A stretch of 64,000 bases of DNA from an uncultured Chloroflexia bacterium (GCA_963819655.1 CAWFXA010000002.1:320001-384000); one strand, 5' to 3'; shown: positions 21,434 to 37,830, counted from the first letter of the stretch. Translations and numbers: made by a program. The notes: generated by a model from the sequence alone, not told the origin.

Positions 21434-21823
21434 GGGCCGAGTCTAGGCGCGCTGACCGGGCACCGCGCTAGAGGCTTTCATCCCGAGATGTTCGCGTCAG
21501 GGCCTGACGGCCATTGATCTGTCAAAGGAGCTCCCGGCGCAACGTCCCCACCGAGTTGCGAGGAAGCGCGATATGCGCCCGGTAGATCGCCTTATGGCAG
21601 CAGTCAACGACGGTGATCGCGCCGCCTGGGGAGCCTCCTCCGGGTGGTTGTCACGATGAAGAACGGGATCTGCCACGGATTGCTGCCGCCCCACGCATCG
21701 GCCACCCTCGTAGGTGTTCTGGCCGCCGGCGACCGCTCCGAGTCGGCCAATGCCTCGTCGATGTGGACCTCTTCTTCGACCGTGCCGCCCGCGTCCTCGT
21801 CGAGTTCGAACGGATCGTCGCCA

Positions 21824-21888
21824 GACCGCCTGAGCGTTGTGGCCACCCGAGTGGGACCCCGAGCGAAACGGGTGGAGTTTTACGCTCT
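21824..21888 (+). repeat. Module left-end repeat, copy 1
   Basis: GACCGCCTGAGCGTTGTGGCCACCCGAGTGGGACCCCGAGCGAAACGGG (49 bp, identical to 27222-27270) then TG-GAGTTTTACGCTCT. Confidence 0.95.
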
Positions 21889-22462
21889 AGGATTCCTGCT
21901 CGGCCGTGCGCAGTAGGGCCAGGGCGTTCTGGATGCCCTGCTCCAGGACCTCGTCGGCAAGCTTCTGATCGGACAGGGCGCGGGAGACCTGGAGCGTCCC
22001 GACCATCAGGGCGAAGACGCTGAGGGTCCTGACGCGCGCTGATTGGGGATCTTCCGCTGCCAATCGGGCGGCAGCGTCATCGATGATCGCCAGCTGCCCA
22101 TCGGTGTAGGCGCGCTTCACGGCGTCGGACGAGCGGGCGATCTCGTCGAGGAGCGCGGCCGATGGACAGCCGCCCTCGGTGTCGTCGCGGTGCTGAGGCG
22201 ACAGATAGCCGCTAACGATTTCCTCGAGCGACTGCGTGCTGTATCGCTCGCGCTGCTCGCGGAGCTGGTCCGCGACCGTGCTCGCGACGAGATCCTCCTT
22301 CGAGTCGAAGTGGGCGTAGAAGGCGCCGTTGGTCAGCCCGGCGTCGGCCATGAGCGTCGCCACCCCGGAGCCATCGATGCCGTCGCGCTTGAGCCGACGG
22401 CCTGCCGCCTCGATGATCCGCCCCCGCGTCGCCTGCTTGTGCTCTTTCCCGTACCGCGCCAT
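21887..22462 (-). CDS. TetR/AcrR family regulator
   Basis: GIDGSGVATLMADAGLTNGAFYAHFDSKE, HRD..EGGCP. Confidence 0.92.
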   Translation of the reverse strand: MARYGKEHKQATRGRIIEAAGRRLKRDGIDGSGVATLMADAGLTNGAFYAHFDSKEDLVASTVADQLREQRERYSTQSLEEIVSGYLSPQHRDDTEGGCPSAALLDEIARSSDAVKRAYTDGQLAIIDDAAARLAAEDPQSARVRTLSVFALMVGTLQVSRALSDQKLADEVLEQGIQNALALLRTAEQES

Positions 22463-22564
22463 CTGCGACTCCCTCATTGGGAAGGGTTCGTCCTTCCTCT
22501 TGACATCCATTATATGTCATGCGTAATATTACGACCATCAGCCAATTAGCGCAAGGAGTCCACG

Positions 22565-23380
22565 ATGACATCAGCCAAGCCAGTCGCGCTCGTGACGGGC
22601 GCCTCCTCCGGCATCGGGAATGCAGCCGCCCTCGCCCTCGTCACGGCCGGTTTCGAGGTGGTCGGCACGAGCCGGAAGACGTCCGGCGTCGCTCCAGTCG
22701 ACGGCGTCACGTTCCTCGACCTCGACGTGACCAGTGACGAGTCGGTTAGCTCGGCGGTCGGGCGCGTGATCGAGCGGTTCGGGCGGCTCGACGTGCTGGT
22801 CAACAACGCGGGCATCGGGGCAGCCGGGGCCGCCGAAGAAAGCTCCGTCGCCCAGGACCAGCGCGTCTTCGATATCAACTTCTTCGGGCTCGTCCGAATG
22901 ACGAAAGCGGTCCTCCCGCACATGCGCGCGGCCGGAAGGGGTCGGATTATCAGCATCTCCTCGGTGCTCGGGCTCGTCCCCGCTCCGTACATGGCCAGTT
23001 ACGCCGCCACCAAGCACGCGATCGAGGGCTACTCCGAGTCGGTCGACCACGAGGTTCGGGAGCACGGCATCCGCGTGCTTCTCGTCGAGCCCGGCTACAC
23101 GCGGACCGGCTTCGACGCCAACGCCATCCAGCCCGACGCACCGTTGCCGATCTACGCGCTGCAGCGGCACGTCTTCGACGGGGTGTTGGCGCGAGGCATG
23201 GCAGACGGCGATGACCCGGCCATCGTCGCCAAGGCGATCGTCGCGGCGGCGACGGACCCGAAGCCGAAGCTGCGCTACACCGCCGGCCCGGCGGCCGGAC
23301 GCGTCAGCGTCCTGCGCCGCTTCGTTCCCACGCGGGTCTTCGACCGGCAGATCCGGAAGCTCAACCGCCTGCCCGCCTGA
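22565..23380 (+). CDS. Short-chain dehydrogenase/reductase
   Basis: TGASSGIG, NNAG, YAATK. Confidence 0.93.
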   Translation: MTSAKPVALVTGASSGIGNAAALALVTAGFEVVGTSRKTSGVAPVDGVTFLDLDVTSDESVSSAVGRVIERFGRLDVLVNNAGIGAAGAAEESSVAQDQRVFDINFFGLVRMTKAVLPHMRAAGRGRIISISSVLGLVPAPYMASYAATKHAIEGYSESVDHEVREHGIRVLLVEPGYTRTGFDANAIQPDAPLPIYALQRHVFDGVLARGMADGDDPAIVAKAIVAAATDPKPKLRYTAGPAAGRVSVLRRFVPTRVFDRQIRKLNRLPA

Positions 23381-23417
23381 AGCCAATCCTCAATCAGCCA
23401 TACCAAGGAGACCCGTC

Positions 23418-24278
23418 ATGAGCACCATGAGCATCGACCCCGTCATCACGTCCTACGCGATGGCGCCGGCCCTCACCATCACCGCAGGCGACGCGACCTA
23501 CGCCTATCGCGAGCTCGGACCGAAGGGCGGGATCCCCGTGATCCTCTTTGTCCACCTTGCTGCGACCCTCGACAACTGGGACCCGCGCATCGTCGACCCC
23601 ATCGCCAGAGAGCACCATGTCATCGCATTCGACAACCGCGGCGTCGGCGCCTCCACCGGCCAGGTTCCCGACAGCGTCGAAGCGATGGCCGACGACGCCT
23701 ACGCCTTCATCCGCGCGCTCGGCTTCGACGAGGTCGACATCTTCGCCTTCTCCCTCGGCGGCTTCGTCGCCCAGGCTCTCGTGATCAAGCACCCGGATCT
23801 GGTCCGCAAGTTGGTCCTCACCGGGACCGGCCCTGCCGGAGGGAAGGACATCGACAAGGTCGCCGGCATCACCTACTGGGACATGTTGCGCGCGGCCCTG
23901 ACCCGGTCGGACCCGAAGGAGTTCCTGTTCTTCAACCGCAACGCCACCGGCAAGCCCGCCGCCCGCGCCTTCGTCAACCGACTCACGGAGCGCACCGTCG
24001 ACCGGGACGCCGCGATCTCGGTGAAGGCTTTCCAGACCCAGCTCAAGGCGATCAAGAAGTGGGGTCGCTCGGCCCCTGCCGACCTGTCGAAGGTCACCCA
24101 GCCCACCTTGATCGCCAACGGCGACAACGACCGGATGGTGCCCTCCGTGCTATCCGAGGACCTGCACCGCCGCATCCGCGGCTCCGAGCTCGTGATCTAC
24201 CCCGACTCCGGCCACGGCGGCATCTTCCAGTTCCACGACACCTTCGTCCCGGTCGCCGTCGAGTTCCTCGACCGCTGA
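23418..24278 (+). CDS. Alpha/beta hydrolase
   Basis: RBS AAGGAG; FDNRGVGAS, AFSLGG, GDND, DSGHGGIFQ. Confidence 0.88.
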   Translation: MSTMSIDPVITSYAMAPALTITAGDATYAYRELGPKGGIPVILFVHLAATLDNWDPRIVDPIAREHHVIAFDNRGVGASTGQVPDSVEAMADDAYAFIRALGFDEVDIFAFSLGGFVAQALVIKHPDLVRKLVLTGTGPAGGKDIDKVAGITYWDMLRAALTRSDPKEFLFFNRNATGKPAARAFVNRLTERTVDRDAAISVKAFQTQLKAIKKWGRSAPADLSKVTQPTLIANGDNDRMVPSVLSEDLHRRIRGSELVIYPDSGHGGIFQFHDTFVPVAVEFLDR

Positions 24279-24305
24279 CCGCACCCTACGAAGGAAGGCA
24301 AGAAG

Positions 24306-25100
24306 GTGGCTACGACACGTCAAGCGGCGAAGAAGCCCCTCGTCTCATCGATCCTGCTGTGGATGCGGACCGATCAGCCCCGTCAGCAAGGCATGGACTA
24401 CTGGAAGGGCCCGCACTCGAAGATCATCTCCGCGACGCCGGGGATGGAGGAGTACCGCCAGATCCATCTGGCGGAGAACAATCCCGGGCTGTGGCCCGCC
24501 ATCCGCGGCGTCGAAACGGTCATCCCCGCCAACCGCCGGATCGACGGGGTCGCCGAGGTCACGTTCACGTCCGTTCTCTCCCCGCTGCGGGGCCGCAAGC
24601 AGACCGGGCTCGCGTACAAGGATGAGGTGAACGTGTTCCGGCGCACCCTGCTCTACGCGGGGCTACCGAACTCGGCCCGCTGGTACAACGTGGCCGGTCC
24701 CGGTGAGAAGGCGGGAGCGCGAAGCCTGATCTACCTCCGCAGGCGGGAAGGCGTCAAGACCGGTGCGTTCCGGAGGTTTCTCACGGACGAGCTTGTTCCC
24801 GCTCTCGTCAAGACAGGAGCCCTGCGGGAACTCCGAACCCAGGTCTTCATGCCCTGGATCAAGAGACTCTGGGACACCCCGAACGTCGCGCACGACAACC
24901 CCGCTGACCAGCGGTTCCAGGCCTCACTGGTCCTCGGCTTCACCGATACCAACGCCCTGTGGACGTTCTTCCGTGGCGGAGAGGTCGCCTCGCTTTCAAG
25001 CAAGTTGCCCGAGTTCGTTTCCGCCGTCCACGCCTACGAGGTCACCGAAGCGCTGACCTACGTGAAGGACGGCAAGATCCTCCCGCACAATCAGACGTAA
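24306..25100 (+). CDS. EthD-like (dimeric alpha/beta barrel) protein
   Basis: YWKGPHS...PGMEEYRQIH...IDGVAEVTF...DE; co-transcribed with SDR and hydrolase. Confidence 0.6.
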   Translation: MATTRQAAKKPLVSSILLWMRTDQPRQQGMDYWKGPHSKIISATPGMEEYRQIHLAENNPGLWPAIRGVETVIPANRRIDGVAEVTFTSVLSPLRGRKQTGLAYKDEVNVFRRTLLYAGLPNSARWYNVAGPGEKAGARSLIYLRRREGVKTGAFRRFLTDELVPALVKTGALRELRTQVFMPWIKRLWDTPNVAHDNPADQRFQASLVLGFTDTNALWTFFRGGEVASLSSKLPEFVSAVHAYEVTEALTYVKDGKILPHNQT

Positions 25101-25167
25101 CGGCGCGCCCCGGTCCCGAGCTCCGGGCCACGACGCACGGTGCGATCAGGTGGAGTGCCGGTCATCG

Positions 25168-26011
25168 TCAGGCCTCCGCCACGTCGAGCGAGACGAAGCG
25201 CTCGCGGTTGAAGTCGATGTCGGCCTGCAGGTCGGCGACCTTCTGCTCGGTGGAAGCGATCGAGTCGGCGCCGGCGATGAACCGGCGTCGCGGCGGCTCC
25301 TCGCTGGCGATCGTCACGAGCGCCTGGGCGAGCTTGGCCGGGTCGCCTGACTGGCGGCCATTCTGGGAGGTCCACCAGTCGATCTGGGCAGCGCGTCGCT
25401 CGGCGTAGTCGTCGATCGACAGTTGGGCGAAGTTCGTCGACTCAGGCGTCAGCAGCTCGGTCCGGAAGAAGCCGGGATTGACGATCGTGGTGTGGATGCC
25501 GAACGGCTGCGACCTCCGGCCGCAACGACTCCATCCAGCCCTCGATCCCGAACTTGGACGCCGCGTAGGCCGTCCCGAACTCGAAGCCGGAAAGCCCCGC
25601 GCTCGAGGAGATCGTGATGACGTGACCGGATCGCTGCCGGCGCATCACGGGCAGGACGGCGCGGGTGACGTTCATCGGGCCGATGAGCGTCGTCGCGAGC
25701 TGGCGCTCCATCTGCTCCGGCGTCAGCTCCTCGAAGAAGCCGGCGTTGAAGTTGCCGGCGTTGTTGACGAGGACATCGATCCGCCCGAATCGCTCGACCG
25801 CGGCCTGGACCGCGGCCAAGGCGTCGGCGGGGCTGGTCACGTCGAGCCTCACGGCGAGCAGGTCGGCAGGGTCGCCGACCGCCTTCGTCACCGCCTCAGG
25901 GTTGCGGCCCGTCGCGACCACGGAATTGCTGGCGGCCAGCGCGGCCTTGGCGATGTCGACGCCCATGCCGCGCCCGGCACCCGTGATGAACCAGACCTTC
26001 CTTTCGGTCAT
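25168..26011 (-). CDS. Short-chain dehydrogenase/reductase (frameshift near 25505)
   Basis: WFITGAGRGMG, NNAG, YAASKF; C-terminal GDPAKLAQAL...RRFIAGAD lies in a shifted frame. Confidence 0.85.
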
Positions 26012-26149
26012 CGGAAATCTCCTTTACGTGGTGGTTTGACCTTCTGCGGGCCATCCAACCACCCGCCATCCCGGTCGGAAAGGCACGCGTTATCGGGGTA
26101 TTGCTGATGCCTGCCTACCAGCGCACGAGGGGCGTAGGGTGGGCGTGAC

Positions 26150-27032
26150 GTGAGCAGCGCCGACGAGATCCGCGAGTTCCTGACGACGCGCCGGGCGAAG
26201 CTGTCCCCCGAGCGCGCCAGCGTGCCGAGGTATGGCCGCAAGCGGCGAGTGCCCGGCCTGCGGCGCGAAGAGGTCGCCCTCCGCGCCGGGATCAGCGTCG
26301 AGTGGTACACGCGCCTGGAGCGCGGCGTCGCGCGGGGCGTCTCCGATGAAGTCCTCGACGCCATCGGCAGCGCGCTCCAGCTCGACGAGGCCGAGCGCGC
26401 CCACCTCGCGGATCTCGTGCGCACCGCGAACGCGGAGCGGCCGCCACGACGAACCTCGACCCCGCAGGGCGTGCGTCCGAGCCTCGCCCGGCATCGTCGA
26501 TGTGATGGGCCCGATCCCGTCCTGCGTGACGAACGGTCGGCTCGACGTCCTCTACGCGAACGATCTCGCGGAGGCGCTCTTCTCGGATGTCTTCCGTGAC
26601 CCCGTCCGCCCGCCCAACTTCGCCCGCTTCGTGTTCCTCGATCCACGAGCGAGGACGTTCTACCGCGACTGGGAGAAAGCTGCCAATGACACCGTCGCAG
26701 TGCTGCGCGCGGCGGCCGGCCGGGACCCGTACGACCGCAGCCTGTCCGACCTGGTCGGGCAGCTCTCGACGCGGAGCGACGAGTTCCGGGTCCGCTGGGC
26801 GGCGCACGATGTCGCGTTCCATCGCACGGCCACCAAGCACATGCACCATCCGCTCGTGGGCGACCTGACCCTCGCCTTCGAGATGCTCGAGCTCCCAGCC
26901 GATCCGGGGCTGTCGGTGCTCATCTACTCCGCCGAGCCCGGCTCACCGTCTGAAGAGGCCATGCGCGAGCTGGCGCGCTGGAGCGAGACGCGGACCAAGC
27001 TCTCGGCAGCTCGGGCCGGATCCGAGACCTGA
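26150..27032 (+). CDS. XRE-family HTH regulator with MmyB-like ligand domain (frameshift near 26490)
   Basis: RRVPGLRREEVA...WYTRLERG, then PNFARFVFLDP...FRVRWAAHDV...HPLVGDLTL. Confidence 0.88.
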
Positions 27033-27063
27033 CCCAGCACGCCGGGCCATCTCGATGCCCGCA

Positions 27064-27180
27064 GAGTTTTACGCTCTAGGAGCGATGTGGCGGCCAAGGC
27101 GTGTGGGCAATGCCTCGGAATAGACCTACAAACCAAAGCCGACGGTCGAGCCGCGCTCAGCAGGTATCATCGCGGTCCGC
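27064..27180 (+). repeat. Module right end: palindromic site plus spacer plus -10 box (TATCAT 27165-27170)
   Basis: GAGTTTTACGCTCTAGGAGCGATGTGGC...TAGACCTACAAACCAAAGCCGACGGTC...GGTATCAT, homologous to 31291-31409. Confidence 0.85.
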
Positions 27181-27220
27181 GCGCCTGTAGCTCAGGGGAT
27201 AGAGCGTCGCCTCCGGAGCC
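27181..27220 (+). pseudogene. 5' half of tRNA-Arg(CCG) (displaced fragment, att-like)
   Basis: GCGCCTGTAGCTCAGGGGATAGAGCGTCG-CCTCCGGAGCC versus tRNA 31410-31450 (1 substitution, 1 deletion); stops 3 nt after the anticodon loop. Confidence 0.9.
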
Positions 27221-27221
27221 T

Positions 27222-27286
27222 GACCGCCTGAGCGTTGTGGCCACCCGAGTGGGACCCCGAGCGAAACGGGCTGAGTCTTACGCTCT
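27222..27286 (+). repeat. Module left-end repeat, copy 2
   Basis: 49 bp identical to 21824-21872, then CT-GAGTCTTACGCTCT. Confidence 0.95.
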
Positions 27287-27328
27287 GTGCGGAAGACCAC
27301 GGTGCAAGGAGTGGGCTCGCGCTCGGCT

Positions 27329-29614
27329 TCAAGGCGCTCGTCCTCGGTCTGCGAGCGAGTAGAGCCGGATGACTCCATCGCGTCCGGTCGTGTATGCGTC
27401 GCCATTGGGCCCGATCACAGCCAGCTCGAGGCCGCGTCCTGACCACGATGAGATGAGGTCACCAGTGGGGGCGAACAGGTGCAGCCGATCGGGCCCGTCC
27501 GTCGCGTACAGTTCGCCATTCGGCCCGGAAGCAAGCAGCACCGGCTCGCGCAGAAGACCCTCTCCGATCTGTCGGACGATCGTGCCGTCCGGGGCGATCA
27601 CCGTGATCCTCCAGGGTGCCCCGCGACCGCCACTGGCGAAATAGACCGTTCCGTCGGGACCCACGACCACGTTGTTCGTGCACCGATCCCTGACGTCCGC
27701 GCCTCCCGCCAATGTCCGAACGTAGTTGCCTGATTGTTCGAAAACCTGGATCCGGCACGTGGGGTCGTCAACCACATAGACGAGCCCGTCCGGGCCAACA
27801 CTGATGCCGAAGGGACTGACGAACTGGCCGGGCCCTGACCCGAAGGTTCCCCATGACCCGATCATCTCTCGGTCGGCATCGAAGTGCACGACCCGCTGGT
27901 GCTCCGAATCGGCAATGAAGAAGCCGCCATCCGGGAGGAAGGCAACTGCACCCCAGCCATCCCGGTCGGGCTGGACGAGGGCGAGGGCGGCATCACCGGT
28001 CGGCTGCCATGTTTCGACGACTCCTCCGTCACGACCGACGATCACGAACCGGGCACGTGTGGGGTCGGCGATCCACAGCCGCCCGTCTGGTGCGCCGTTC
28101 AGGAAGAACGGCCCCTCGATCCCAAGATCTCGGGCCGTGCGGGCCCACACCTCAACGAGTGCAACGGTCGAGGTGATGATGTGCGCCGACGACGATGGGC
28201 GCTCGGCCGTCGCACTGGAAGCGACCCCTGCGGTGGGCGACGGACTGCTGGCACGAGCTTCGGCGGCGGTCAGCGCGTACACACTCCCATCCTGTGTTCC
28301 AACGATCAGGTGCGCGCCGGCGACTGCGGGCGAGAAGGGGATGCCGTCGAGTAGGAAGGTCCCGAGGACGTCGCCGGTGGCCGCCTCGAGGGCCTCGATC
28401 CCCCCGTGCGAGGCGAGGTACAGCACTCCACCAGCCTTGGTCGGCGATGAGCCGACCTGAACGCCGAGGCTTCGTGTCCATATCTCGGCACCGTCGTCGG
28501 CCCGGAGCGCGACCACGTCGCCGTCGACCGCGGCTGCGTAGACGGTCCCCGTCTCGGGGTCGACGACCGGAGCGACGACTGTCTGTCCGTTTGGCCGCCG
28601 GTGACGCCATATCCCACGGCCGGATTCGAGATCGACCGCGTAGAGAACGCCGCGATTCCCTTCGAGATCAAGGCCTGCGAGCAGGACCTTCTCGCCAGCG
28701 ATGACGGGTGTATCGGTGAAGACCGGCGTCGCAAAGCGCCACAACTCGCGTGCGGTTGGGGAGTCGAAGGCCACGGCGATCCCGACATCGGTCGGGACGA
28801 CGAGGATCGAACCCTGGACCGCGATCGACCGCGTCGAGGGCCCCGGCAGGTCTTCCTGCCAGACGACCTCGTGCGTTTCGAGATCGATGGCCAGAACCTT
28901 GCCGGTCGCGCCCGGGACGGGTCGTCCACGGGACTGTGCCGAAGAGGTCGAGACGTACAGCCGGTCGCCGACGATCGCCGGACTACCGGCAGCGTAGCCA
29001 TCGAGCGGTATTTGCCAGGCGACATGGCCAGTCCGTCGATCCACGGCGACGAGATCCCGATCCTCCGTCCCGACGATCACCAACTCACCGGCCACAGAAG
29101 GCGACGACCAGGCAACGTTCAGATCGGACGACCACAGCTGGACGTGGCGTCGGAGGTCGAACGCTCGGAACTGGCCATCGATCGCTCCCACGTAGGCGAC
29201 GCCGTCCACGATCGCCGCCGACGATACGATCGGACCGGAGAGCGTCGTCTGGAAGTCGATGGTCATGGCCCCACCGGGTCCGGGCCCCGTTACCACGCCG
29301 GTCCTTGCCGCGTCACCGCGGAACGTCGAGCTGTCCGACAGGGGCTCCGATCTCCGGAGGAGCTGGGCGCCCACCGCGGCGATGCCGGCCAAGAGCGACA
29401 TCAGGAGGAGGGCGGTCATCGCCAGCCGGACGGGTCGCGGCAATGCGACGACCTTCGCCATGATCCGGCTTTCGAGCGGGGCGGGCTGCTGCGGGGTGAG
29501 GCGGACCGCGGCCGCGATGGAGTCGCGCAGATCTGCAGGTGCCAGCGTCGCCTGGGGCAGTGCCAGAGATCGGTTCAGCAGCTCCCGTGTCAACGGCGGA
29601 AGGTTCCGGCTCAT
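27329..29614 (-). CDS. Single-TM protein with PQQ-like and NHL beta-propellers (putative anti-sigma factor)
   Basis: Start overlaps the ECF stop; TM segment; FRGDAARTG, repeated SSP/W motifs; WGTFGSGPGQFVSPFGISVGPDG. Confidence 0.8.
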   Translation of the reverse strand: MSRNLPPLTRELLNRSLALPQATLAPADLRDSIAAAVRLTPQQPAPLESRIMAKVVALPRPVRLAMTALLLMSLLAGIAAVGAQLLRRSEPLSDSSTFRGDAARTGVVTGPGPGGAMTIDFQTTLSGPIVSSAAIVDGVAYVGAIDGQFRAFDLRRHVQLWSSDLNVAWSSPSVAGELVIVGTEDRDLVAVDRRTGHVAWQIPLDGYAAGSPAIVGDRLYVSTSSAQSRGRPVPGATGKVLAIDLETHEVVWQEDLPGPSTRSIAVQGSILVVPTDVGIAVAFDSPTARELWRFATPVFTDTPVIAGEKVLLAGLDLEGNRGVLYAVDLESGRGIWRHRRPNGQTVVAPVVDPETGTVYAAAVDGDVVALRADDGAEIWTRSLGVQVGSSPTKAGGVLYLASHGGIEALEAATGDVLGTFLLDGIPFSPAVAGAHLIVGTQDGSVYALTAAEARASSPSPTAGVASSATAERPSSSAHIITSTVALVEVWARTARDLGIEGPFFLNGAPDGRLWIADPTRARFVIVGRDGGVVETWQPTGDAALALVQPDRDGWGAVAFLPDGGFFIADSEHQRVVHFDADREMIGSWGTFGSGPGQFVSPFGISVGPDGLVYVVDDPTCRIQVFEQSGNYVRTLAGGADVRDRCTNNVVVGPDGTVYFASGGRGAPWRITVIAPDGTIVRQIGEGLLREPVLLASGPNGELYATDGPDRLHLFAPTGDLISSWSGRGLELAVIGPNGDAYTTGRDGVIRLYSLADRGRAP

Positions 29615-30183
29615 TCCGACACCTCCCGGAGCGCCTTCGCGAGGGCTCGGCGCGCACTGAAGAGACGCCACATGACCGTCCCCGAAGGGACGCGAAGGAG
29701 ATTCGCGATCTCGGCGACCGGTCGGCCTTCGCCGTGATGCAAGGCGAGCACGGTTCGCTGGTCGCCGGACAACCGGCCGAATGCCTGGCGGACGATGTCC
29801 TCGTCGGCCAGCGCTTCGAGAGGCGACTGGCTTGTCGGATGGTCGGCCGGAAGCGAGAGCTCCTCGATCGGGATCTCCCGGACCCGGGCCTTTCGGCGCC
29901 GGAGCAGCATCCGGCACTCGTTCACGACGATCCGATCGAGCCACGCATCGAAGCGCGCGACATCACGGAGTCGAGGGAGTTCTCGCCAGGCTGCCAAGAA
30001 CGCCTCCTGGCATGCGTCGCGGGCGTCCCATTCAGTTCGCAGGATGGCCAGAGCCGTGCGATAGGCTCGGTCGAGCCGAGCGTCGATCAACCGTTCGAAT
30101 GCCTGCACATCGCCGGCGCGGGCCAACTCGACGAGCGAGGCGTCGCTCGTCGAGCCGACCGAGGTGCTCGCGTGTGCCGTCAT
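29611..30183 (-). CDS. ECF RNA polymerase sigma factor
   Basis: DASLVELARAGDVQAF, DACQEAFLAAW, WLDRIVVN, EIANLLRVPSGTVMWRL. Confidence 0.92.
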   Translation of the reverse strand: MTAHASTSVGSTSDASLVELARAGDVQAFERLIDARLDRAYRTALAILRTEWDARDACQEAFLAAWRELPRLRDVARFDAWLDRIVVNECRMLLRRRKARVREIPIEELSLPADHPTSQSPLEALADEDIVRQAFGRLSGDQRTVLALHHGEGRPVAEIANLLRVPSGTVMWRLFSARRALAKALREVSE

Positions 30184-30244
30184 CGGGTTGCAGTGTGCCC
30201 TCGACGGACGGGTCAGCCGGCGAACAATGGGCAGAGAGCGGAGG

Positions 30245-31105
30245 TCATGGCAACTCCAACAGTCCGGCGACGGCAGGCCATGTGATCTCTGCGACCTCCG
30301 CCTGTCCGCGCACGTTCAGGTGGTTCCGATCGCTGGAGAAATCCTCGGGGCGTTCAATGTACGCGGCGCGAGCTCCGTCGTCCGTCCGGCAATTGGGCAC
30401 CGTGGCGCACACCCGGGCCTGCTCCGTCTCATATTTCTCGATGATGGATGTCAGGGTGTCGGAAGGGTCAGGGTCGCACAGCATCCACGAAGGGGGTCGT
30501 CCGAGCTGTCCGACCACCAGGATCCGTGAGTCGGGTGAGGCCGTGGTTACGACCTGCAAGGCGTCTGCGAGGGCGACACCGAACTCGGGTACGTGCGTGC
30601 GATCGGTCCCGTCGCAGCGGATGTCGCTGTCGATCGTTTGGACTACGACGAGTGCCGGGGTGGGAACAGTTTCGAGAGCGGATCGCGCCTGCCCCGCCAG
30701 CGAAGACGCGGGCGCACCACCTTGCGCAGTGTTGGCAACATGGCCCTCGGTCTCCGGACGGACCGCGACGAGCCGCCGGTAGATGCTGTTGACCTCAGGC
30801 GATGTGCCAGTCGCCCACGAGTTTTCGAGCGCAACCCGACCAGGACGGCTCGGATCGGAGTTCTCACCAGTCAAGCCGGAGTGCCCGATCGCTATGACAC
30901 CGACCGGCTTGCCGGGGTTGGCCGCGGTCGCGGTCGATGTGGCGGCCGGGCCGGCCGCGGCCGATGTGGTAGCCGGGCCGGTCGCGGCCGATGTGGTGGC
31001 CGGGCCGGTCGCGGCCTGGTCTCCGATGTCTGCACTGCGGCAGCCACTGACCGCCAACGCCAAGGCGATGATGGCGGCCACGGTGCCAGCTGATCTTGTG
31101 TTCAT
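30245..31105 (-). CDS. SGNH/GDSL-like hydrolase lipoprotein
   Basis: Lipobox VSGC; AIGHSGLTG, NSWATG, DRNHLNVRGQ. Confidence 0.7.
   Translation of the reverse strand: MNTRSAGTVAAIIALALAVSGCRSADIGDQAATGPATTSAATGPATTSAAAGPAATSTATAANPGKPVGVIAIGHSGLTGENSDPSRPGRVALENSWATGTSPEVNSIYRRLVAVRPETEGHVANTAQGGAPASSLAGQARSALETVPTPALVVVQTIDSDIRCDGTDRTHVPEFGVALADALQVVTTASPDSRILVVGQLGRPPSWMLCDPDPSDTLTSIIEKYETEQARVCATVPNCRTDDGARAAYIERPEDFSSDRNHLNVRGQAEVAEITWPAVAGLLELP
30926..31016. repeat. 27-bp tandem repeat (about 3.3 copies) encoding an AATGPATTS linker
   Basis: GGTCGCGGYCGATGTGGYRGCCGGGCC repeated in frame within the lipoprotein gene. Confidence 0.85.
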
Positions 31106-31290
31106 GATGTGCTCCGGGGTAGTCCGGATGTGCATCCTTTGCCTCCTGATCGGGTCTCTGCATTCGCAGAGTTCCTTCAGAAGTCCAGATGCGAGGGAGC
31201 ACCGATCCATTTGGCGCTCCTCTGTAAGAAACACGTGCGCCGAGTTGTCGCCGTACGTGCTCCCTCCGCTCGGACCGTTCGGCCGCCGGC

Positions 31291-31409
31291 GAGTTTTACG
31301 CTCTACGAGCGTTGTGGCCGCGGAATCCGTGCTCGCCGCAGCGGCAAGGTAGACCTTCGAACCACAGGCCGAAGGTCCATCCAAGCTCGGCGGGTATGAT
31401 CAGCGCCTC
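31291..31409 (+). repeat. Module right end: 29-bp palindromic site plus spacer plus tRNA promoter (-10 TATGAT 31395-31400)
   Basis: GAGTTTTACGCTC-TAC-GAGCGTTGTGGCC (31291-31319); GACCTTCG/CGAAGGTC inverted repeat 31352-31377. Confidence 0.85.
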
Positions 31410-31485
31410 GCGCCTGTAGCTCAGTGGATAGAGCGTCGGCCTCCGGAGCCGAAGGTCGCAGGTTCGAATCCTGTCGGGCGCGCCA
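31410..31485 (+). tRNA. tRNA-Arg (CCG)
   Basis: GCGCCTGTAGCTCAGTGGATAGAGCGTCGGCCTCCGGAGCCGAAGGTCGCAGGTTCGAATCCTGTCGGGCGCGCCA: 76 nt, CT-CCG-GA loop, CCA end. Confidence 0.97.
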
Positions 31486-31576
31486 GTTCAACCTTTTCGG
31501 GCAGAGCCAGCGCCAATCCGTGCGCGTAGGCCGCCTGAGTCAGCCGGACACCCACGATCTCGGGTGCCAGCGACCG

Positions 31577-32239
31577 TCAGTGGTTCGTCGGCTGCGTGCC
31601 GGAGAGGATGTCTTTGGGTGGCGTGGCCAGACCGAATACCTGATCCAGGAGCGTGGTGACGCACCAATCCACCCAGTCGTCGTGCGGCCAGCCGTACGTC
31701 CCGACGAGGAAGTGGTAGGCGTCCTCGCCAACGTAGAAGAGCAGCAGGTGCGCTGCTCTCTCCGGGTCGAGCCCATCGCGCAGCGGTGCCTTCTTCCGAA
31801 GGATCTCGAGGATGACCCGGTAGCCATCGGCCCGCCAGGCCTCGGATTCCGCCATGACCCTGGCCAGATCGGGATCGTCACTCGCCCGCGCCGCGAGATT
31901 GAGCGGGATCACCCTTGGCATGATCGAGCCGACACCGGTCACCAGGTGGCGAACCGCCTCGGCGATCCCCGAGGCATCGGTCATCGCCAGGTACCACGGC
32001 TGCTCCTCAGGAGGACGCGGGTCATCCCGGCCCATCACGGCGAAGTCGATGGCCCGCGCGAGCAGGGCGGGCTTCGTGTGGAACACGAAGTAGACCGTCT
32101 GGACGGCGACGCCGGCAGCCTCGGCGACCTGCGCCATCGTCGTGGCGGCATAGCCCTGGGTCGAGAACAGGCGGTGCGATGCCTCGACGATCTTCCAGTG
32201 GGTGGCGCGGGACCGCTCCCGTCGGGTCAGGCTGGCCAT
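31577..32239 (-). CDS. TetR/AcrR family regulator
   Basis: GYAATTMAQVAEAAGVAVQTVYFVFHTK. Confidence 0.92.
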   Translation of the reverse strand: MASLTRRERSRATHWKIVEASHRLFSTQGYAATTMAQVAEAAGVAVQTVYFVFHTKPALLARAIDFAVMGRDDPRPPEEQPWYLAMTDASGIAEAVRHLVTGVGSIMPRVIPLNLAARASDDPDLARVMAESEAWRADGYRVILEILRKKAPLRDGLDPERAAHLLLFYVGEDAYHFLVGTYGWPHDDWVDWCVTTLLDQVFGLATPPKDILSGTQPTNH

Positions 32240-32249
32240 GCGGAACCTC

Positions 32250-32307
32250 TTGACATCCGTCGCGAAGGCGATACTATCCGACCTCTCACTAGAGTGCACA
32301 CTAGTGA
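32250..32307 (+). promoter_or_regulatory. Promoter TTGACA-16-TACTAT plus near-palindromic TetR operator
   Basis: TTGACA 32250-32255, TACTAT 32272-32277, TCACTAGAGTGCACACTAGTGA 32286-32307. Confidence 0.7.
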
Positions 32308-32338
32308 TACCGCCAGTTCACTGGGGAAGGACCTACGG

Positions 32339-32782
32339 ATGATCAGCGTGGAGACACGGATCGAGATCGCGCGGCCGGCCGCCGACGTGTTCGCGTTCGT
32401 CAGCGACCAGACGAACGCGCCGCGCTGGCAGTCCGGGCTCGACGAGGTCCATCGCCTTACACCGGGTCCTATCCGGGTAGGGTCAGAGCACAGCTTCATT
32501 CGCCGGTTCGCCGGTCGGCGGATCGAGTCGAGGAACAAGTTCGTCGCGTTCGAGCCCGGTCGCTTCGTCGCCTTCGACATCCCGCCCGGGGGCGGAGTGA
32601 CCGGAGAGGCGTCCTACCTCGTCGAGCCGACCAGCGCCTCCAGCAGCGCGTTGACCAGTCGCGTCCAACTCCGCTTCTCCGGACTGGGTCGGCTCATCGA
32701 GCCGTTCATGGGACGTGTGCTGCGCCGCGACGTCCAACGGGATGATCAGGTGCTAAGGGCCCTGCTGGAAGCGGAGGCGTAG
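32339..32782 (+). CDS. SRPBCC (polyketide cyclase/dehydrase) family protein
   Basis: IEIARPAADVFAFVSDQTNAPRWQ. Confidence 0.85.
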   Translation: MISVETRIEIARPAADVFAFVSDQTNAPRWQSGLDEVHRLTPGPIRVGSEHSFIRRFAGRRIESRNKFVAFEPGRFVAFDIPPGGGVTGEASYLVEPTSASSSALTSRVQLRFSGLGRLIEPFMGRVLRRDVQRDDQVLRALLEAEA

Positions 32783-32790
32783 GCCAGGAC

Positions 32791-33249
32791 ATGACCGGAG
32801 TTCGTGTGGATCGGGATCGCCCTGGGGCCGCGGACCCCGTGACCGCGACGGCGGCGGTCCCCGGTGTCGCGCGTGGTGCAGCGGTGGTGTGCTGGGTGTA
32901 CGCGGCCGGATACGGGCTGGCCGCGTTGCCGATCGCGGCCTATGCACTCCGGGAACGGGAGCTGCCGTGGCTCGGCGACCTGTTCCCGATGTATGGCGGC
33001 CCGTGGTGGGGCCCGTTGAGTCCCGAGGCGTTCGCCGCGACACTCGTCGGATACGCGGGTGTCACCGCAGCGGTCGCGTGGGGCGGGTGGTTGATGTGGC
33101 GGGGACGCCGCTCTGGAGCCGTGCTTGCCGTCGCCATGATCCCGATCGAGGCAGTCTTCTGGTACGGCTACGCCCTGCCGATCCCGCCCGCCCTGGCGCT
33201 CCTGCGGGTCGGCCTGATCGCCGCAGCCTGGCCCCGCCTCCGCCGTTGA
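32791..33249 (+). CDS. Hypothetical membrane protein
   Basis: About four hydrophobic segments, operonic with the SRPBCC gene. Confidence 0.65.
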   Translation: MTGVRVDRDRPGAADPVTATAAVPGVARGAAVVCWVYAAGYGLAALPIAAYALRERELPWLGDLFPMYGGPWWGPLSPEAFAATLVGYAGVTAAVAWGGWLMWRGRRSGAVLAVAMIPIEAVFWYGYALPIPPALALLRVGLIAAAWPRLRR

Positions 33250-33465
33250 TCGACCCGGACGCGAAGCAGGTGCGTGCTGTCCACGACCGTCACGCCTGCC
33301 GCCTCGACGCAGCGAGCCACTCATCCCGCCCCTCGATCGGGATCGTGTAGGTTGCAGCCAAGCGCCCCACACCTGTCGGGCGCGCCAGTACGAATGTTCT
33401 CGACCATCGAGCGATCGGTCGGCCTGACTCGGCCCAGAGAGTGAGAGAGAAGCGACTTCCGGCGC

Positions 33466-34140
33466 TCACGCGCCGGCTAGCCTCTGCTCGCTCGCCTCGA
33501 GTCGCCGCGCCAACCCGTCGAGCAGCAGGTCGAGCCCGAACGTGAACTCGAGCGGGACGCCACCCTCCTGCCCGACCATCGTCGCCATGGCGATCAGGTT
33601 CGGATAGCGCTCCGGGTCGAGGCCTGCGGCGAGCTCGGTCGCGACCTCGGCGTACTCGTCGACGCCGAACGGCCAACTCGCGACCTGCATGGTGAAGCCG
33701 TACAGGTGGCTATCCAGCGCGCCGAAGGCGTGCCCGACATCCTGGAGCGAGAAGCCCGCCTCGTGCAGCACGCCGACGACGGCATCGAGAAAGGCGAGGC
33801 GTGCCGGGCCCGGATCGAAGTCGGACTCCAGCAGCGGCCCGGCCCAAGGGTGGCGGGACAGGACGGCGTACGCGGCGATCGAGCTCGCGCGGATCGCCAT
33901 GCGCCAGTCGACGTCGCGAGACGGGAGCTCGAACTCGGACGCGACCCGGTCGGCGATTCCCGCCAGGACATCGTTCTTGTCGGCGACGTGCTTGTACAGC
34001 GACATCGCTTCCACACCGAGCTGCTGCCCGAGGCGCCGCATCGTGACCGCCCCGAGCCCCTCGCGGTCTGCCACCTCGACCGCGGCATCGATGATCCGCT
34101 CGCGGCTCAACGGGACCCGAGAGGGCTTCGCCTTGGCCAT
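33466..34140 (-). CDS. TetR family regulator (TetR_C domain)
   Basis: LSRERII...TMRRLGQQLGVEAMSLYKHV...FTFGLDLLLDGL. Confidence 0.92.
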   Translation of the reverse strand: MAKAKPSRVPLSRERIIDAAVEVADREGLGAVTMRRLGQQLGVEAMSLYKHVADKNDVLAGIADRVASEFELPSRDVDWRMAIRASSIAAYAVLSRHPWAGPLLESDFDPGPARLAFLDAVVGVLHEAGFSLQDVGHAFGALDSHLYGFTMQVASWPFGVDEYAEVATELAAGLDPERYPNLIAMATMVGQEGGVPLEFTFGLDLLLDGLARRLEASEQRLAGA

Positions 34141-34155
34141 CGTCCTCCTTCGGGG

Positions 34156-34213
34156 TTGACAGGCTTACAACGTAATCCTACGATGCCCTGCATTCAAGCT
34201 TACGTTGTAAGCC
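34156..34213 (+). promoter_or_regulatory. Promoter TTGACA-17-TACGAT with two TTAC-N3-GTAA operators
   Basis: TTGACA 34156-34161, TACGAT 34179-34184; GGCTTACAACGTAA (34162-34175) inverted to TTACGTTGTAAGCC (34200-34213). Confidence 0.75.
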
Positions 34214-34227
34214 GCAAGGAGCGCCAG

Positions 34228-34794
34228 ATGAACCCGATCCTCGCCTTTGTCCTCGCCGCCGCCGGCGTCCTCGTCACGGGTGCCGTGCTGTTCGTCTTTG
34301 GGATGCGCACGAAAGCGCCCATCGTGCAGGGCGCCATCATCGCCGTCAGCAAGTGGGTGATGAACCCGCGCCAGATGCGGACCGCGGGACGCCCCGGCGC
34401 GTACGCCGGCATCGTCCGCCAACGCGGGCGCGTGACGGGGCGCGCCTACGAGACGCCGGTCGGCATCGTCGCCGTGCCTGACGGCTGGCTGATCGCCCTG
34501 CCGTACGGGACGAGGACCCAATGGCTGCGCAACGTCCTGGCGGCGGGTCGCGCGGAGATCGTCGTCGAGGGCGAGACGCACCAGGTCGACCGACCCGAGC
34601 TCGTGCCGACGGCCAGCTACGCGACGGCGTTCTCTTCCACCGACCAGCGGCTGTTCCGCTGGCTCGCGGTGAACGAGTGCCTGCGCTTGCGGGTCGCCGC
34701 GGGCGAGGATCAGCCCGCGGGGGCCTCGAGCTCCCCGGGATCGGCGAACGCACGCTCGCCGCGCGAGGCCCCCGCGGCCATCGCCTCGCGGTAG
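34228..34794 (+). CDS. Deazaflavin-dependent nitroreductase/PNPOx-like protein with N-terminal TM
   Basis: RGRVTGRAYETPV, ALPYG...WLRNVLAAG. Confidence 0.8.
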   Translation: MNPILAFVLAAAGVLVTGAVLFVFGMRTKAPIVQGAIIAVSKWVMNPRQMRTAGRPGAYAGIVRQRGRVTGRAYETPVGIVAVPDGWLIALPYGTRTQWLRNVLAAGRAEIVVEGETHQVDRPELVPTASYATAFSSTDQRLFRWLAVNECLRLRVAAGEDQPAGASSSPGSANARSPREAPAAIASR

Positions 34795-34814
34795 GCGCCG
34801 ACCGCGGCGTCGAC

Positions 34815-35023
34815 GTGGCCGCGGGGTCGGACTCGTACGTCGGCCAGTGGGCGTTCATCACCTCGAACAGCCGGCGGCCGTAGACGCTGGCCTCAGTCGC
34901 GCGAAGTCGTTCGTTGAACCAGGTGTGCAGCTCGTCGTCGGTGATCGCCCAGTCGAGCGAGTGATCCGGCGTCTCGATGTAGCCGTCGAGCGAGACGTTC
35001 ATCAAGAAGATGACTTTGCCCAT
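34815..35023 (-). pseudogene. Truncated dihydrofolate reductase/RibD-C family gene
   Basis: MGKVIFLMNVSLDGYI...GRRLFEVMNAHWPT, similarity lost after ~68 aa. Confidence 0.7.
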
Positions 35024-35170
35024 GGCGGCATCGTCCTCGACGGGACGTCCCTGGATCAGGCACCTTCGGCGTCGAAATTGCTCAATCGCCGCGATCCGAT
35101 CGGGCGCGGCTCCTACTCCCGCGGATGTATGCGCTCTCTTGACACCGTCATGTATCGTGCGACGGTGAGC

Positions 35171-35186
35171 GTGAATGCGCATTCAC
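35171..35186. promoter_or_regulatory. LacI-family operator
   Basis: Perfect 16-bp palindrome GTGAATGCGCATTCAC downstream of TTGACA (35139-35144). Confidence 0.75.
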
Positions 35187-35226
35187 AGTCTGCCATTGGT
35201 GGACGATGAGGAGCTTCCCCCAGGCG

Positions 35227-36304
35227 ATGCCCCCACGGAGAGACGACGGACGGCACCCGGCGACTACCGGGGCGGACCGGGGCGTGACGATGGACGAGGT
35301 CGCCCGCGTTGCGGGTGTCTCGCAGGCGACCGTGTCGCGGGTCGTGAACGGCAATCCACGGGTGAGCCCGGAAACCAAGGTCCTCGTCGAGCGGACGATC
35401 GAACGACTGAAGTTCGTCCCGAACATCGCGGCCCGGACGCTGGTCACCCGCCGCAGCGACTCGATCGGCGTCCTGATCCCGGAGCCGACCTCGCGGGTCT
35501 TCGGCGATCCATTCTTCGCCCAGGTCCTGCGCGGCGTCAGCTCGGCACTCACGGCCCGGCGCCTCAAGCTGGTCCTATTCCTCCCCCAGAGCCAGGGGGA
35601 GGAGGGCGAGCTGCAGGGTTATCTCATCGCCGGCCACGTCGACGGCGTGATCATGTATTCGCTGCACGGCAACGATCCGCTGCCGGAACGGCTCCGTCGG
35701 CGGGGCGTCCCGGTCGTCGTCGGAGGCCGGCCGCCGTCGGGTGCCCGGGTGAGCTACGTCGACTACGACAACCGCGGGGGCGCCCAGTCGGCCACCGCGC
35801 ACCTGATTGCCACCGGCCGGCAAGTCATCGCCACGATCACCGGTCCGCCCGATATGTCCGCCGCGATCGACCGCCTCGACGGCCATCACGACGCGCTGAC
35901 TGCGGCAGGTCACGGGATTGATGCGGGCTTGGAGGCTGCCGGCGACTTCACCCAGGAGAGCGGCGCGCGCGCCATGGAGCAGCTGCTGATCCGGCGGCCC
36001 GATCTGGATGCCGTCTTCGCCGCCAACGACGTGATGGCGACAGGTGCCCTGCCAGGTCCTGGAGCGTGCCGGCCGACGGGTTCCCGATGACGTCGCCGTC
36101 GTCGGCTTCGATGACCTGCCGCTCGCCCTGGCCAGCCACCCGCCGCTGTCGAGCGTCCGCCAGTCGCTCGACGTGATGGGACAGGAGCTCGTCCACGTGC
36201 TGCTCCAGAGCATCGAGAACCGCGACTCGGTCGCCCGAAAGGTGGTGCTCGAGACGCAATTGATCGTCCGCCAGTCGAGTGGAGGGCCGCGTTCGACAAG
36301 ATGA
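35227..36304 (+). CDS. LacI family regulator (frameshift near 36050)
   Basis: TMDEVARVAGVSQATVSRVVN; DAVFAANDVMA; VPDDVAVVGFDD in shifted frame. Confidence 0.9.
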
Positions 36305-36413
36305 GAGTCCCACGGCAAACGGGTCATGGGCCGGCCTGCGCGCCGGCTGCATTCGCGCCGAAGGCCGGGGCAACGGCTCCGGTCCCAACGGCGTCTCAGG
36401 AGGAGGACAACGC

Positions 36414-37781
36414 ATGCCAAGGCTGATCTCCCTGGTGGCCACCCTGGCCATCGTCGCCGCCGGTTGCGGCGGAACCCCGGCCAGCCCCACGGGGGCGGCG
36501 ACCAATCCACCGTCGGCGCCGGCGAGCCCCGGTGCGTCGGGTCAAGGGCTGGCGTCGCTCGCCCCGACGACCCTGCGCGTCCTGGTCCACCAGAACCCGC
36601 CCTTCACCGAGTTCATGAACACATTCAACGCGGACTTCCAGGCCAACCACCCGGGCGTCACCGTCGACATGTCGGTCGTCGCCCCGGCCGATCTCGCAAC
36701 GACGACCCAGACCCGCCTCGACGGCCAACGACGTCGACGTCGTCGACATGTTCGCCTTCGACACCGCGGTCCAGCCGTTCATGAAGGAGGCCACACCGCC
36801 GATCTGGCAGACCCTCGCAGACGCCGGCAGCCTGCTGGACCTGACCGACCAGCCGTTCGTCCAGAACTACGACCCCAGCGCGATCACCGACGCCGGCACG
36901 TACAACGGCAAGGTCTACGAGATCAACCTCGCCCGGGTCGGTTTCAGTGGCCTCTACATCAACAAGGACCTCTTCGCCGCCAACAACGTGGCGGTGCCCA
37001 CGACGTGGAGCGAGCTCGTCGCTGCCTGCCAGACGTTCAAGACCGCCAACGTGCCGTGCATGACCGCGGGCGGCCAGGACTGCTGGCCGATCTTCGTCAC
37101 TGGCTACGGCATCCTCGGCTCGTCGTTCCCCGATCAGGCAGCGTACGTCGAGGGCCTGTGGACCGGCACGATCAAGTACAACGACGCGGCCAACCTCGAG
37201 ATGTGGGAGAAGCTCCAGGTCCTGGCCCAGGACATGATCGAGCCGGGTGCGAGCGGCATCGCCGCGGACGGCGCTCCGGGACGGTTCGCCACCGGCGAGG
37301 TCGCTACGCTGTCGGGCTTCACCTGGCTCGCACCGGCGATCGAGGCTGCCCAGCCGTCGTTCGACTGGGACTTCATCACCTTCCCCGGCAGTGACAACGC
37401 CGACGACAACAAGTACGTCTTCGGCAAGTACGACCAGGGCTGGACGATCAACGCCAACACTCCGAACAAGGACGCCGCCCTCGCGTACCTCAGCCGAGTT
37501 CTCGGATCCGGCCAACTACCAGGAGTTCGTGACGGCCGTCGGGGCCATCCCGACCCAGCCGACTGCGACGCTCGACACCAAGCTCGGCCAGGCGATCGCG
37601 CCGAGCCTCGAGAACTTCCGGATCGGCTGGGAGCGATACTGGATCGCACCCAAGGGCGCCGGCGAGTTCGCGTTCCCGTATGCCACGTTCTTCACAGCCG
37701 TTCGGCACGTTCGCGACCGCCGAGGAGGCAGCGAACGCCGCCCAGACCGACCTCCAGGCCGGTCTCGACTCGCTCAAGTAA
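36414..37781 (+). CDS. Carbohydrate ABC transporter substrate-binding lipoprotein (frameshifts near 36720, 37495, 37695)
   Basis: RBS AGGAGG; lipobox AAGC; YINKDLF...VPTTWSEL. Confidence 0.85.
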
Positions 37782-37794
37782 CACTTAGGCGCGA

Positions 37795-37830
37795 AACGGG
37801 CTCCGGGGCCGCAGCGCTTCGGAGCCCGTT
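37795..37830 (+). other. Intergenic stem-loop after the binding-protein gene (mRNA stabiliser or attenuator)
   Basis: AACGGGCTCCG...CGGAGCCCGTT 11-bp stem. Confidence 0.6.

Follow-up and report, generated by a model that had tools for sequence, protein, structure and literature searches.

How does the first half of a tRNA gene come to lie alone, several kilobases upstream of the complete gene? The question is raised by a stretch of 64,000 nucleotides from an uncultured Chloroflexia bacterium (GCA_963819655.1 CAWFXA010000002.1:320001-384000), here called the window and numbered from its first letter, in which an intact tRNA-Arg(CCG) gene is preceded by an isolated copy of its own 5' half. The genome of the window (3.49 Mb) is designated G000, and other G numbers denote relatives. 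We consider it likely that the copy is a product of site-specific integration in the anticodon arm of tRNA-Arg(CCG), by elements that supply the upstream region together with the 5' half of the gene and that have become stacked at this site. Coordinates of all features are collected in Table 1.

ARAGORN called one intact tRNA-Arg(CCG) gene, and a genome-wide count found it to be the sole gene of this specificity among 50 tRNA genes; as a single-copy gene it is taken to be essential. The program did not call as a tRNA the sequence at 27181-27220, which the first-pass annotation had described as a 40-nt 5' fragment of tRNA-Arg ending just past the anticodon loop, but direct comparison with the gene confirmed that description. 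The fragment matched the first 41 nt of the gene at 95%, with a T-to-G substitution at position 16 and one nucleotide missing from the anticodon stem, and lay 4229 nt upstream of the gene on the same strand. The match ended after ...CCTCCGGAGCC at tRNA position 41 and so took in three bases on the 3' side of the anticodon stem. An Rfam scan of 16000-33000 (E values up to 1) returned nothing besides the tRNA. The window thus shows a fragment in the same orientation as the gene and on the same replicon, and, as a 5' fragment, upstream of it, which are features of tRNA-gene islands.

The similarity of the two copies extended well beyond the tRNA sequence. About 115 nt upstream of the fragment and of the gene were homologous, and the aligned span, including the tRNA part, was 157-160 nt; in a whole-genome search 27064-27220 and 31291-31450 were 77% identical (E 2.3e-24), so that the upstream regions are homologous but diverged, as had been stated from the first reading. 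Both hexamers noted there as -10 boxes were present at their places, TATCAT ending 10 nt before the fragment and TATGAT ending 9 nt before the gene. Within the genome this repeat family was limited to the tRNA-Arg(CCG) locus.

Directly 3' of the fragment followed a conserved arm, termed R, and the 69-nt repeat 27218-27286 recurred at 21820-21888 with 94% identity. The arms share short motifs. M1 is GAGTTTTACGCTCT, a 14-nt sequence that opened both upstream regions (P27 and P31) and occurred five times in the window at no more than two mismatches, against 0.03 occurrences expected from shuffles; M2 is GAGCGTTGTGGCC; and R holds M2, a third motif M3, and M1. The cargo of the window directly abutted M1 of the P arm. 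Two further junctions, read directly like the rest of this anatomy, lay to the left. At J1 the expected P arm and tRNA fragment to the left of R were missing in the window and were present at the same place in G122. J0, which matched the 31.3-kb upstream region at 79% over 100 nt, is probably the oldest junction. In composition, P27, fragment and R (27064-27286) appear as an attP-like hybrid site, in which the core is flanked by a P arm from an older module and a P' arm from a newer one, as tandem integration predicts. The variable region begins where the conserved left flank ends, near 7848, so the island upstream of the gene measures about 23.5 kb, of which the portion at 17.1-31.4 kb is structured by junctions.

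Folding of fragment plus R gave no notable RNA structure (z = 0.36 relative to shuffles), and RNAalifold applied to 17 copies of R yielded no supported structure, with covariation in 2 of 14 predicted pairs and a covariation term of +0.27. R is better read as a set of putative protein-binding motifs than as an RNA structure. The palindrome formed by M1 and M2 in the P arm was considered as a second crossover site and rejected by reasoning from the orientation of its half-sites.

The same junction was sought in 131 genomes of the genus, which comprises soil and freshwater Chloroflexota, with fragment plus R as query and only matches extending into R being counted. It was found in 19 genomes, a lower bound because many of the searched genomes are fragmented. 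Up to four junctions occurred in a single array (G095), so the tandem stacking expected of successive incoming modules was actually seen. The arrays of 10 genomes, with 16 fragments and 13 intact genes, were read nucleotide by nucleotide at the junctions. Without exception the fragments kept the common tRNA sequence through ...GGAGCC(G), ended at tRNA position 41-43 and continued into R; this constancy was observed directly. The R arms were 80-98% like that of the window and ended sharply after M1. All 13 intact genes were identical in sequence and 3 of the 16 fragments were mutated, as expected of dead fragment copies. Arms that were 97-98% identical between species adjoined unrelated cargo.

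Two relatives showed other arrangements at this gene. In G125 (L046:8653-8904) there was a second copy of tRNA-Arg(CCG) with a P arm, in which about 75 unrelated nucleotides replaced the sequence after the anticodon loop before the T arm resumed. G125 (L046:2870) and G075 (L043:8381) shared the motif CTTGTTCTATT after the intact gene, which may mark where another element terminates at the 3' end of this tRNA.

A cognate enzyme was found in relatives. In G071, 27.7 kb separated fragment and R from the intact gene, and the interval ended with a tyrosine integrase of 330 amino acids (L042:12534-13526, - strand; PF00589, E 4.8e-31; SAM-like core-binding domain PF02899, 2.7e-4) that started about 125 nt upstream of tRNA-Arg(CCG) and was divergent from it. 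An integrase 74% identical to this one occupied the same position at the same tRNA in G147, where the 5' fragment lay 9.9 kb away on the integrase side and ended in GGAGCC(G), followed by an R-like arm with M2-, M3- and M1-like motifs. These integrase-bearing elements carry the upstream region and 5' half next to the integrase gene, which supports the earlier proposal that the element supplies the 5' half and not the usual 3' half.

Homologues of the integrase (36-64% identity) were present in 41 of the 131 genomes, G000 not being among them. For 20 further homologue loci of the genus the position of the tRNA was determined: a divergent tRNA (Gly, Lys, Met, Leu, Arg, Pro or Val) stood just upstream of the integrase in 16, a co-directional tRNA in one, and none in three, one of which was at a contig end. 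For ten of these loci up to 40 kb were fetched on the integrase side, and each contained there a 5' tRNA fragment of 39-51 nt at a distance of 2.2-35 kb. All ten loci had fragments ending 0-5 nt past the anticodon loop, at tRNA positions ~38-43, and three loci had two fragments. The smallest elements (2.2-2.4 kb, in G065 and G128) contained little besides the integrase. On the integrase side the arm was organised as M1-M2 and then M1-M3 abutting the tRNA, and on the far side as M2, M3, M1; this motif order was constant across seven other tRNA specificities. The association of integrase, tRNA and fragment is thus a matter of direct observation. In the window, and likewise for all ten other tRNAs served by the same integrase clade, the boundary fell on the 3' side of this stem-loop, the anticodon arm, in agreement with the suggestion that the crossover lies in or beside this arm.

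Residues R181, H272, R275, W298 and Y307 (R...H-x-x-R...W...Y) were invariant in 15 aligned integrases. The best NCBIfam models were XerC (155 bits, cut-off 335) and XerD (142 bits, cut-off 330); since these scores are far below the cut-offs, the integrase is not XerC/D itself. It is predicted to be a Xer-like tyrosine recombinase of the simple type, the lack of an arm-binding domain being judged from its length.

Members of the clade also occur outside the genus. When one genome of each species was scanned, 79 integrase loci were returned, which by record title belong to Chloroflexota (Candidatus Limnocylindrales, 'Chloroflexia'), Actinomycetota including Streptomyces and Amycolatopsis, Dormibacterota and others. 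Where a tRNA stood no more than 600 nt upstream of the integrase, it was divergent at 44 loci and co-directional, the canonical layout in which the 3' half is supplied, at 22; nine loci had no tRNA within this distance, and at four the upstream sequence was too short to tell. A FastTree phylogeny was calculated for 70 integrases, after 11 loci of the genus had been added and rows without tRNA, matches shorter than 250 amino acids and rows with stops had been dropped. On this quick tree, computed without bootstraps and with labels shared among kin, orientation changed five times, at least four of the changes being forced by well-supported branches, compared with 17.6 changes in shuffles. As far as such a tree goes, it shows that the orientation of integrase and tRNA is clustered and has apparently switched several times, and no more.

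These observations suggest the following course of events. A module would carry an attachment (att) site consisting, to one side of the crossover, of a P arm of about 120 nt plus tRNA positions 1-41 and, to the other, of the R arm of about 66 nt. Its insertion would rebuild the gene, which would keep its resident 3' half and receive the upstream region and the 5' half from the module, and the resident upstream region and 5' half would become joined to R. The 40-nt piece in the window would be the old 5' half of tRNA-Arg(CCG), moved 4.2 kb upstream by a module that entered within the anticodon arm. Positions 1 to ~38 of the intact gene would have been brought by this module, module 3, and the remainder would be resident. 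The window would record at least three insertions, one per junction (17.1, 21.8 and 27.1 kb), and the module adjoining the gene would be the newest. The candidate enzyme is the Xer-like tyrosine integrase (~310-340 amino acids) encoded in relatives ~100-250 nt upstream of, and divergent from, the target tRNA. We place the exchange in or next to the 7-nt anticodon loop, and probably inside it, because the fixed 3' limit of the fragments mirrors the canonical 3' fragments of the same genome, which start at tRNA position 31 and derive from tRNA-Thr(CGT) and tRNA-Gln(CTG).

Comparison with two relatives bears on the order of insertion. In G057 the same fragment and R, module 3, arm and gene were in place, and module 3 with P31 was 96-97% identical to G000. 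The displaced arm was 59-80% identical, the left-hand sequence overall 59-87%, and the sequence downstream of the gene was unrelated. P31 shared 95.8% identity with the arm that precedes the intact gene in G057 and ~72% with other arms; judged by these values, P31 travels with module 3. In G122 module 3 was absent, whereas module 1 (98%), module 2a (94%) and the downstream flank (96.6%) were closely similar to the window, and an extra module of 4.2 kb stood between complete junctions at 21820-21888, where the window has R alone. The segment 25106-27063 (~2 kb) was absent in both G122 and G057. Over its proximal 45 nt the intact-gene arm of G122 was 82.6% identical to P27, 80.9% to the displaced arm of G057 and 78.3% to P31. 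On a favourable reading, G122 would keep the uninterrupted site, module 3 would have entered the tRNA in the lineage of G000 and G057, and the insertion or deletion at 25106-27063 would set G000 apart. The first-pass annotation had looked to the empty locus of a relative for its junction. G122 does lack 27221-31450 and has module 2 joined through a P arm to the intact tRNA, which agrees with the expectation; the arms concerned are 74-83% alike and the 2-kb difference lies adjacent, so that the agreement is partial. The competing description, that G122 lacks 25106-31287 and has its junction elsewhere, was dropped after arm-by-arm comparison of identities and inspection of G057. A recent transfer of module 3 was also considered and set aside, as the core identity of G000 and G057 (85-94%) was too close to that of module 3 (96-97%) for such a claim.

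Further observations concern these relatives. The conserved left flank occurred twice in G122, on contigs C10 and C19, with 90% and 81% identity to the window, and G122 may for that reason mix two strains; G012 likewise had two copies of the tRNA locus. On one of the contigs of G012 (C11) a csp gene and a native-looking promoter stood directly upstream of the tRNA, in an upstream context that differed from that of the window. The region 31486-42000, downstream of the gene, was variable: in G057 and G127 the gene adjoined a homologue of window ~42.0-42.8 kb and not of 31.5 kb. About 10 kb downstream of the tRNA are therefore present in G000, G122, G012, G020 and G019 but absent from G057 and G127, whose downstream homology starts at ~42.0 kb.

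If an upstream region is imported with each module, the arm next to the gene would have to drive its transcription, and from its position and the single-copy state of the gene P31 is presumably the working promoter of tRNA-Arg(CCG). It had also been proposed that the displaced promoter reads into the next module and may produce a chimeric half-tRNA RNA. Metatranscriptome contigs from four runs of one study, which were 95-99% alike to the window and carry neither strand nor end information, were compared with 26500-32000. One contig (library X1) ran from the tRNA 5' half into R-like sequence; it may represent such a chimeric RNA and is equally compatible with DNA carry-over or another strain. 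A role of R as terminator for the displaced promoter was dropped after the terminator scan had come back empty.

Several points weigh against integration as the origin of the array. Recombination itself is deduced from sequence comparison. An integrase was found in one of the ten arrays examined, namely that of G071, and none of the relevant clade was detected in the window or genome of G000 by the PF00589 profile or tblastn. The 64-kb window contained no PF00589 match, and the six matches of the genome lay elsewhere, the nearest ~380 kb away; searching the whole genome with the relevant integrase by tblastn returned only XerC/D-like genes of at most 30% identity. The absence of any recombinase from the modules of the window had not been foreseen in the first-pass annotation. 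The arms of the window, putative substrates of the integrase, are of a type (A: M1-M2 followed by ~95 nt of native-like upstream sequence with a hairpin) other than the type (B) that adjoins integrases; both types occurred in integrase-less modules. R was 87% identical between G000 and G057, below the 96-97% of the cargo, a difference that we attribute to neutral drift. In the BLAST alignment P31 is the partner of the G122 arm, which makes 25106-31287 seem to be missing, and the site is not a clean empty one; reading it as such requires a second insertion or deletion (25106-27063) and relies on modest differences in arms of 45-120 nt. Scans with sigma-70 and terminator consensus sequences found nothing at either arm. 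Finally, the crossover point cannot be placed within the block of identity, because all 5' halves are identical.

The lack of integrases allows two versions of what the modules are. In the first, a variant of the integration model, they are decayed islands, each of which arrived with an integrase beside its P arm that was later deleted, so that they are scars and were never mobilised in trans. Integrase-bearing elements occupy the same site in G071 and G147, the 2.2-2.4-kb elements of G065 and G128 contain hardly anything but the integrase, and decay is evident at J0 and J1 of the window. On the other side, tblastn with the relevant integrase detected no remnant in the window or in nine other integrase-less arrays (best E 0.94), the cargo of the window sits directly against M1 of the P arm, and arms that are nearly identical between species next to unrelated cargo look more like exchange than erosion. 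We give this version slightly less than an even chance. In the second, the integrase-less blocks would be working cassettes, each of which would acquire a complete att site (P arm, 5' half and R) on circularisation and would be captured and released in trans by the Xer-like integrases of passing elements. The tRNA would then act like the attI of an integron, its upstream region being renewed at each capture, and the sharp edges of the cargo at the outer M1 would mark a second level of cassette exchange. We regard this combined picture as rather unlikely. Either way, since the genome has no integrase of the clade, the modules of the window would be immobile unless one comes in trans.

A more distant alternative dispenses with site-specific recombination: the locus would be a flexible island renewed by homologous recombination on the tRNA and its flanks, and the units would be segmental duplications or members of a repeat family. 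Modules of close relatives do differ by insertions or deletions that do not end in the tRNA (25106-27063), and the array shared by G000 and G122 is 94-98% similar while the left flank of that contig reaches 81%, as if entire stretches had been exchanged. This alternative leaves unexplained why the end point in the anticodon arm is the same nucleotide in all 16 fragments, why ten other tRNAs have like end points, each beside a homologous integrase, why ordered arm motifs are common to several tRNA specificities, and why the repeat is limited to one locus in the genome; we therefore consider it improbable. A second tRNA-Arg gene that arose by tandem duplication and lost its 3' half by deletion would account for the upstream homology, yet this origin of the fragment, like a chance match, is as good as excluded by a break point that is the same in 10 genomes and always followed by the same conserved arm, by intact genes that are identical, by intervening sequence and cargo that vary from genome to genome, and by the lack of any 3' remnant.

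Integration at the tRNA thus being the preferred reading, the content of the modules can be considered (Table 1). Cargo varied between arrays and included STAND NTPases with LuxR or cyclase domains, an FG-GAP protein, and an ECF sigma factor with a WD40/PD40 partner. Large STAND-type NTPases recurred at tRNA-Arg(CCG), with AAA_16 or NB-ARC plus TPR domains fused to adenylate cyclase or LuxR domains (G000, 18251-21433; G024, L035:11799-14924; G016, L036:3895-6981; G013, L038:1525-4287). An inverted repeat of 61 nt (80%; 22754-22814 and 25753-25813) lay between the two SDR genes of module 2, and a 27-nt unit in three tandem copies (87-92%) occupied 30925-31016 inside the 379-aa open reading frame of module 3.

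Table 1. Junctions, arms, tRNA sequences and cargo genes in the window (aa, amino acids; ORF, open reading frame)
Feature	Position	Strand	Remarks
J0, decayed junction	17132-17260	+	P arm with degenerate M1, M2 and hairpin region; -10 region and tRNA fragment deleted; R stub follows
Module 1 cargo	17261-21819		1060-aa adenylate-cyclase/AAA_16/TPR (STAND-type) gene, 18251-21433 (-), Pfam; two further ORFs of smaller size
J1, R (P') arm only	21820-21888	+	repeat match to R
Module 2 cargo	21889-27063		six genes; Pfam
Module 2: TetR	21887-22510	-	Pfam
Module 2: SDR	22565-23380	+	Pfam
Module 2: alpha/beta hydrolase	within 23211-24278	+	Pfam
Module 2: 264-aa ORF	24306-25100	+	
Module 2: truncated-looking SDR, 189 aa	25442-26011	-	Pfam
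Module 2: MmyB-like regulator	26232-27032	+	Pfam
P27, displaced upstream arm	27064-27180	+	M1 27064-27077; degenerate M2 27080-27092; -10-like TATCAT 27165-27170
Displaced tRNA-Arg(CCG) 5' half, positions 1-41	27181-27220	+	direct comparison with gene
R (P' arm, left end of incoming module)	27221-27286	+	conserved 66 nt; holds M2, M3, M1
Module 3 cargo	27287-31290		Pfam; no recombinase
Module 3: PQQ/NHL beta-propeller protein, 871 aa	27329-29944	-	Pfam
Module 3: 379-aa ORF, weak GDSL-like match, 27-nt tandem repeat	30245-31384	-	true start probably further in
P31, arm upstream of intact gene	31291-31409	+	M1 31291-31304; M2 31307-31319; hairpin 31352-31377; -10-like TATGAT 31395-31400
Intact tRNA-Arg(CCG)	31410-31485	+	ARAGORN; Rfam 72 bits

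Other tRNA genes of G000 also carried displaced fragments. A 40-nt 5' fragment (97.5%) of tRNA-Val(GAC) (gene at C3:498576; locus C3:494406-498652) lay 4.17 kb upstream of the gene and ended at the anticodon loop; the arms contained M2-, M1- and M3-like motifs and no integrase was nearby, so that this appears to be a second integrase-less module of the genome. At tRNA-Thr(CGT) (C2:721870-738753) a 45-nt 3' fragment lay 16.8 kb away with two PF00589 genes inside, and for tRNA-Gln(CTG) (C3:3292) three 3' fragments were found on another contig (C1:9046-31549) with a broken integrase adjacent; both are canonical islands.

If the proposed course of events is right, the newest mobile module provides a single-copy tRNA gene with its upstream region, and presumably with its promoter, and expression of the tRNA would depend on imported DNA. 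Loss of that module other than by precise excision would cost the cell the tRNA gene. Arrays of this kind, present in at least 19 of the 131 genomes, escape island finders that require an integrase per island. Their cargo comprises regulators, STAND NTPases, beta-propeller proteins and small sets of metabolic genes. Spanning several phyla and found in either orientation, the integrase clade offers a natural system for studying how an integrase switches between supply of the 3' half and of the 5' half.

The array can be compared with several known systems. An integron consists of a resident IntI with an adjacent attI and promoter, and its cassettes end in attC. Like an integron array, the locus lines up small blocks of genes at a single fixed position, with a putative recombination site bounding each, and the integrase of the relatives is related to the Xer/IntI branch, as judged from weak NCBIfam matches (64.6 bits for the integron integrase model, cut-off 265). 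Unlike integrons, it has no resident integrase-attI platform and no attC hairpins, and the modules are multigenic, occur in both orientations and carry their own regulators. Cis-mobilisable elements (CIMEs) have flanking att sites and no recombination genes, and take part in the accretion of integrative elements. The modules resemble them in their att-type bounds, in the lack of an integrase and in their place, which is either next to autonomous relatives in a tandem row or at a site that such relatives use, with mobilisation in trans being putative; they differ in that the att site is in the 5' half of a tRNA gene.

In canonical integration into the anticodon loop of a tRNA gene, reportedly set out by Williams in 2002, the element supplies the 3' half. 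Shared with it are the symmetric anticodon stem-loop as the probable crossover region and the integrase gene adjoining the att site, and the canonical layout also occurs inside the same integrase clade, at the 22 co-directional loci. The arrangement described here is its mirror image: the block of identity extends from upstream of the gene to position 41, and the region of the transcription start would be imported.

Tycheposons of Prochlorococcus, according to the available part of the preprint by Hackl et al. (bioRxiv 10.1101/2020.12.28.424599), integrate successively at one tRNA and displace older elements with partial tRNAs between them, and degenerate integrase-less remnants accumulate into a persistent island of niche genes. 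Growth at a tRNA, partial tRNAs as separators and integrase-less remnants are common to both systems, as far as that part describes them. The phylum and the integrases are different, the hallmark replication genes and excisionase were not seen in the modules of the window, and the same part of the preprint makes no mention of a supplied 5' half.

The closest counterpart is found in the Islander collection (PMC4383910; Hudson, Lau & Williams 2015), which, in the sections of the article available, lists 3919 islands, of which 3760 have a 3' fragment of the tRNA gene and 159 a 5' fragment, allows for sites centred on the anticodon and for islands in tandem, and demands an integrase inside each island. 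The array of the window belongs to this known minority kind, tRNA islands with a 5' fragment: it has the intact tRNA gene, the fragment of the same orientation upstream, the island in between and the boundary at the anticodon arm, and its kind includes tandem arrays and autonomous members with a tyrosine integrase (G071 and G147). It is unlike the Islander islands in that its modules have no integrase, and Islander would filter them out for this reason. For the 5' class, those sections describe no integrase clade or arm architecture, and literature searches, in which phrases containing a prime were unsearchable, found no description of the clade or of the arm motif plan. What is new relative to the known 5' class is thus the cognate integrase clade, its constant place beside the tRNA in either orientation, and the plan of its arm motifs.

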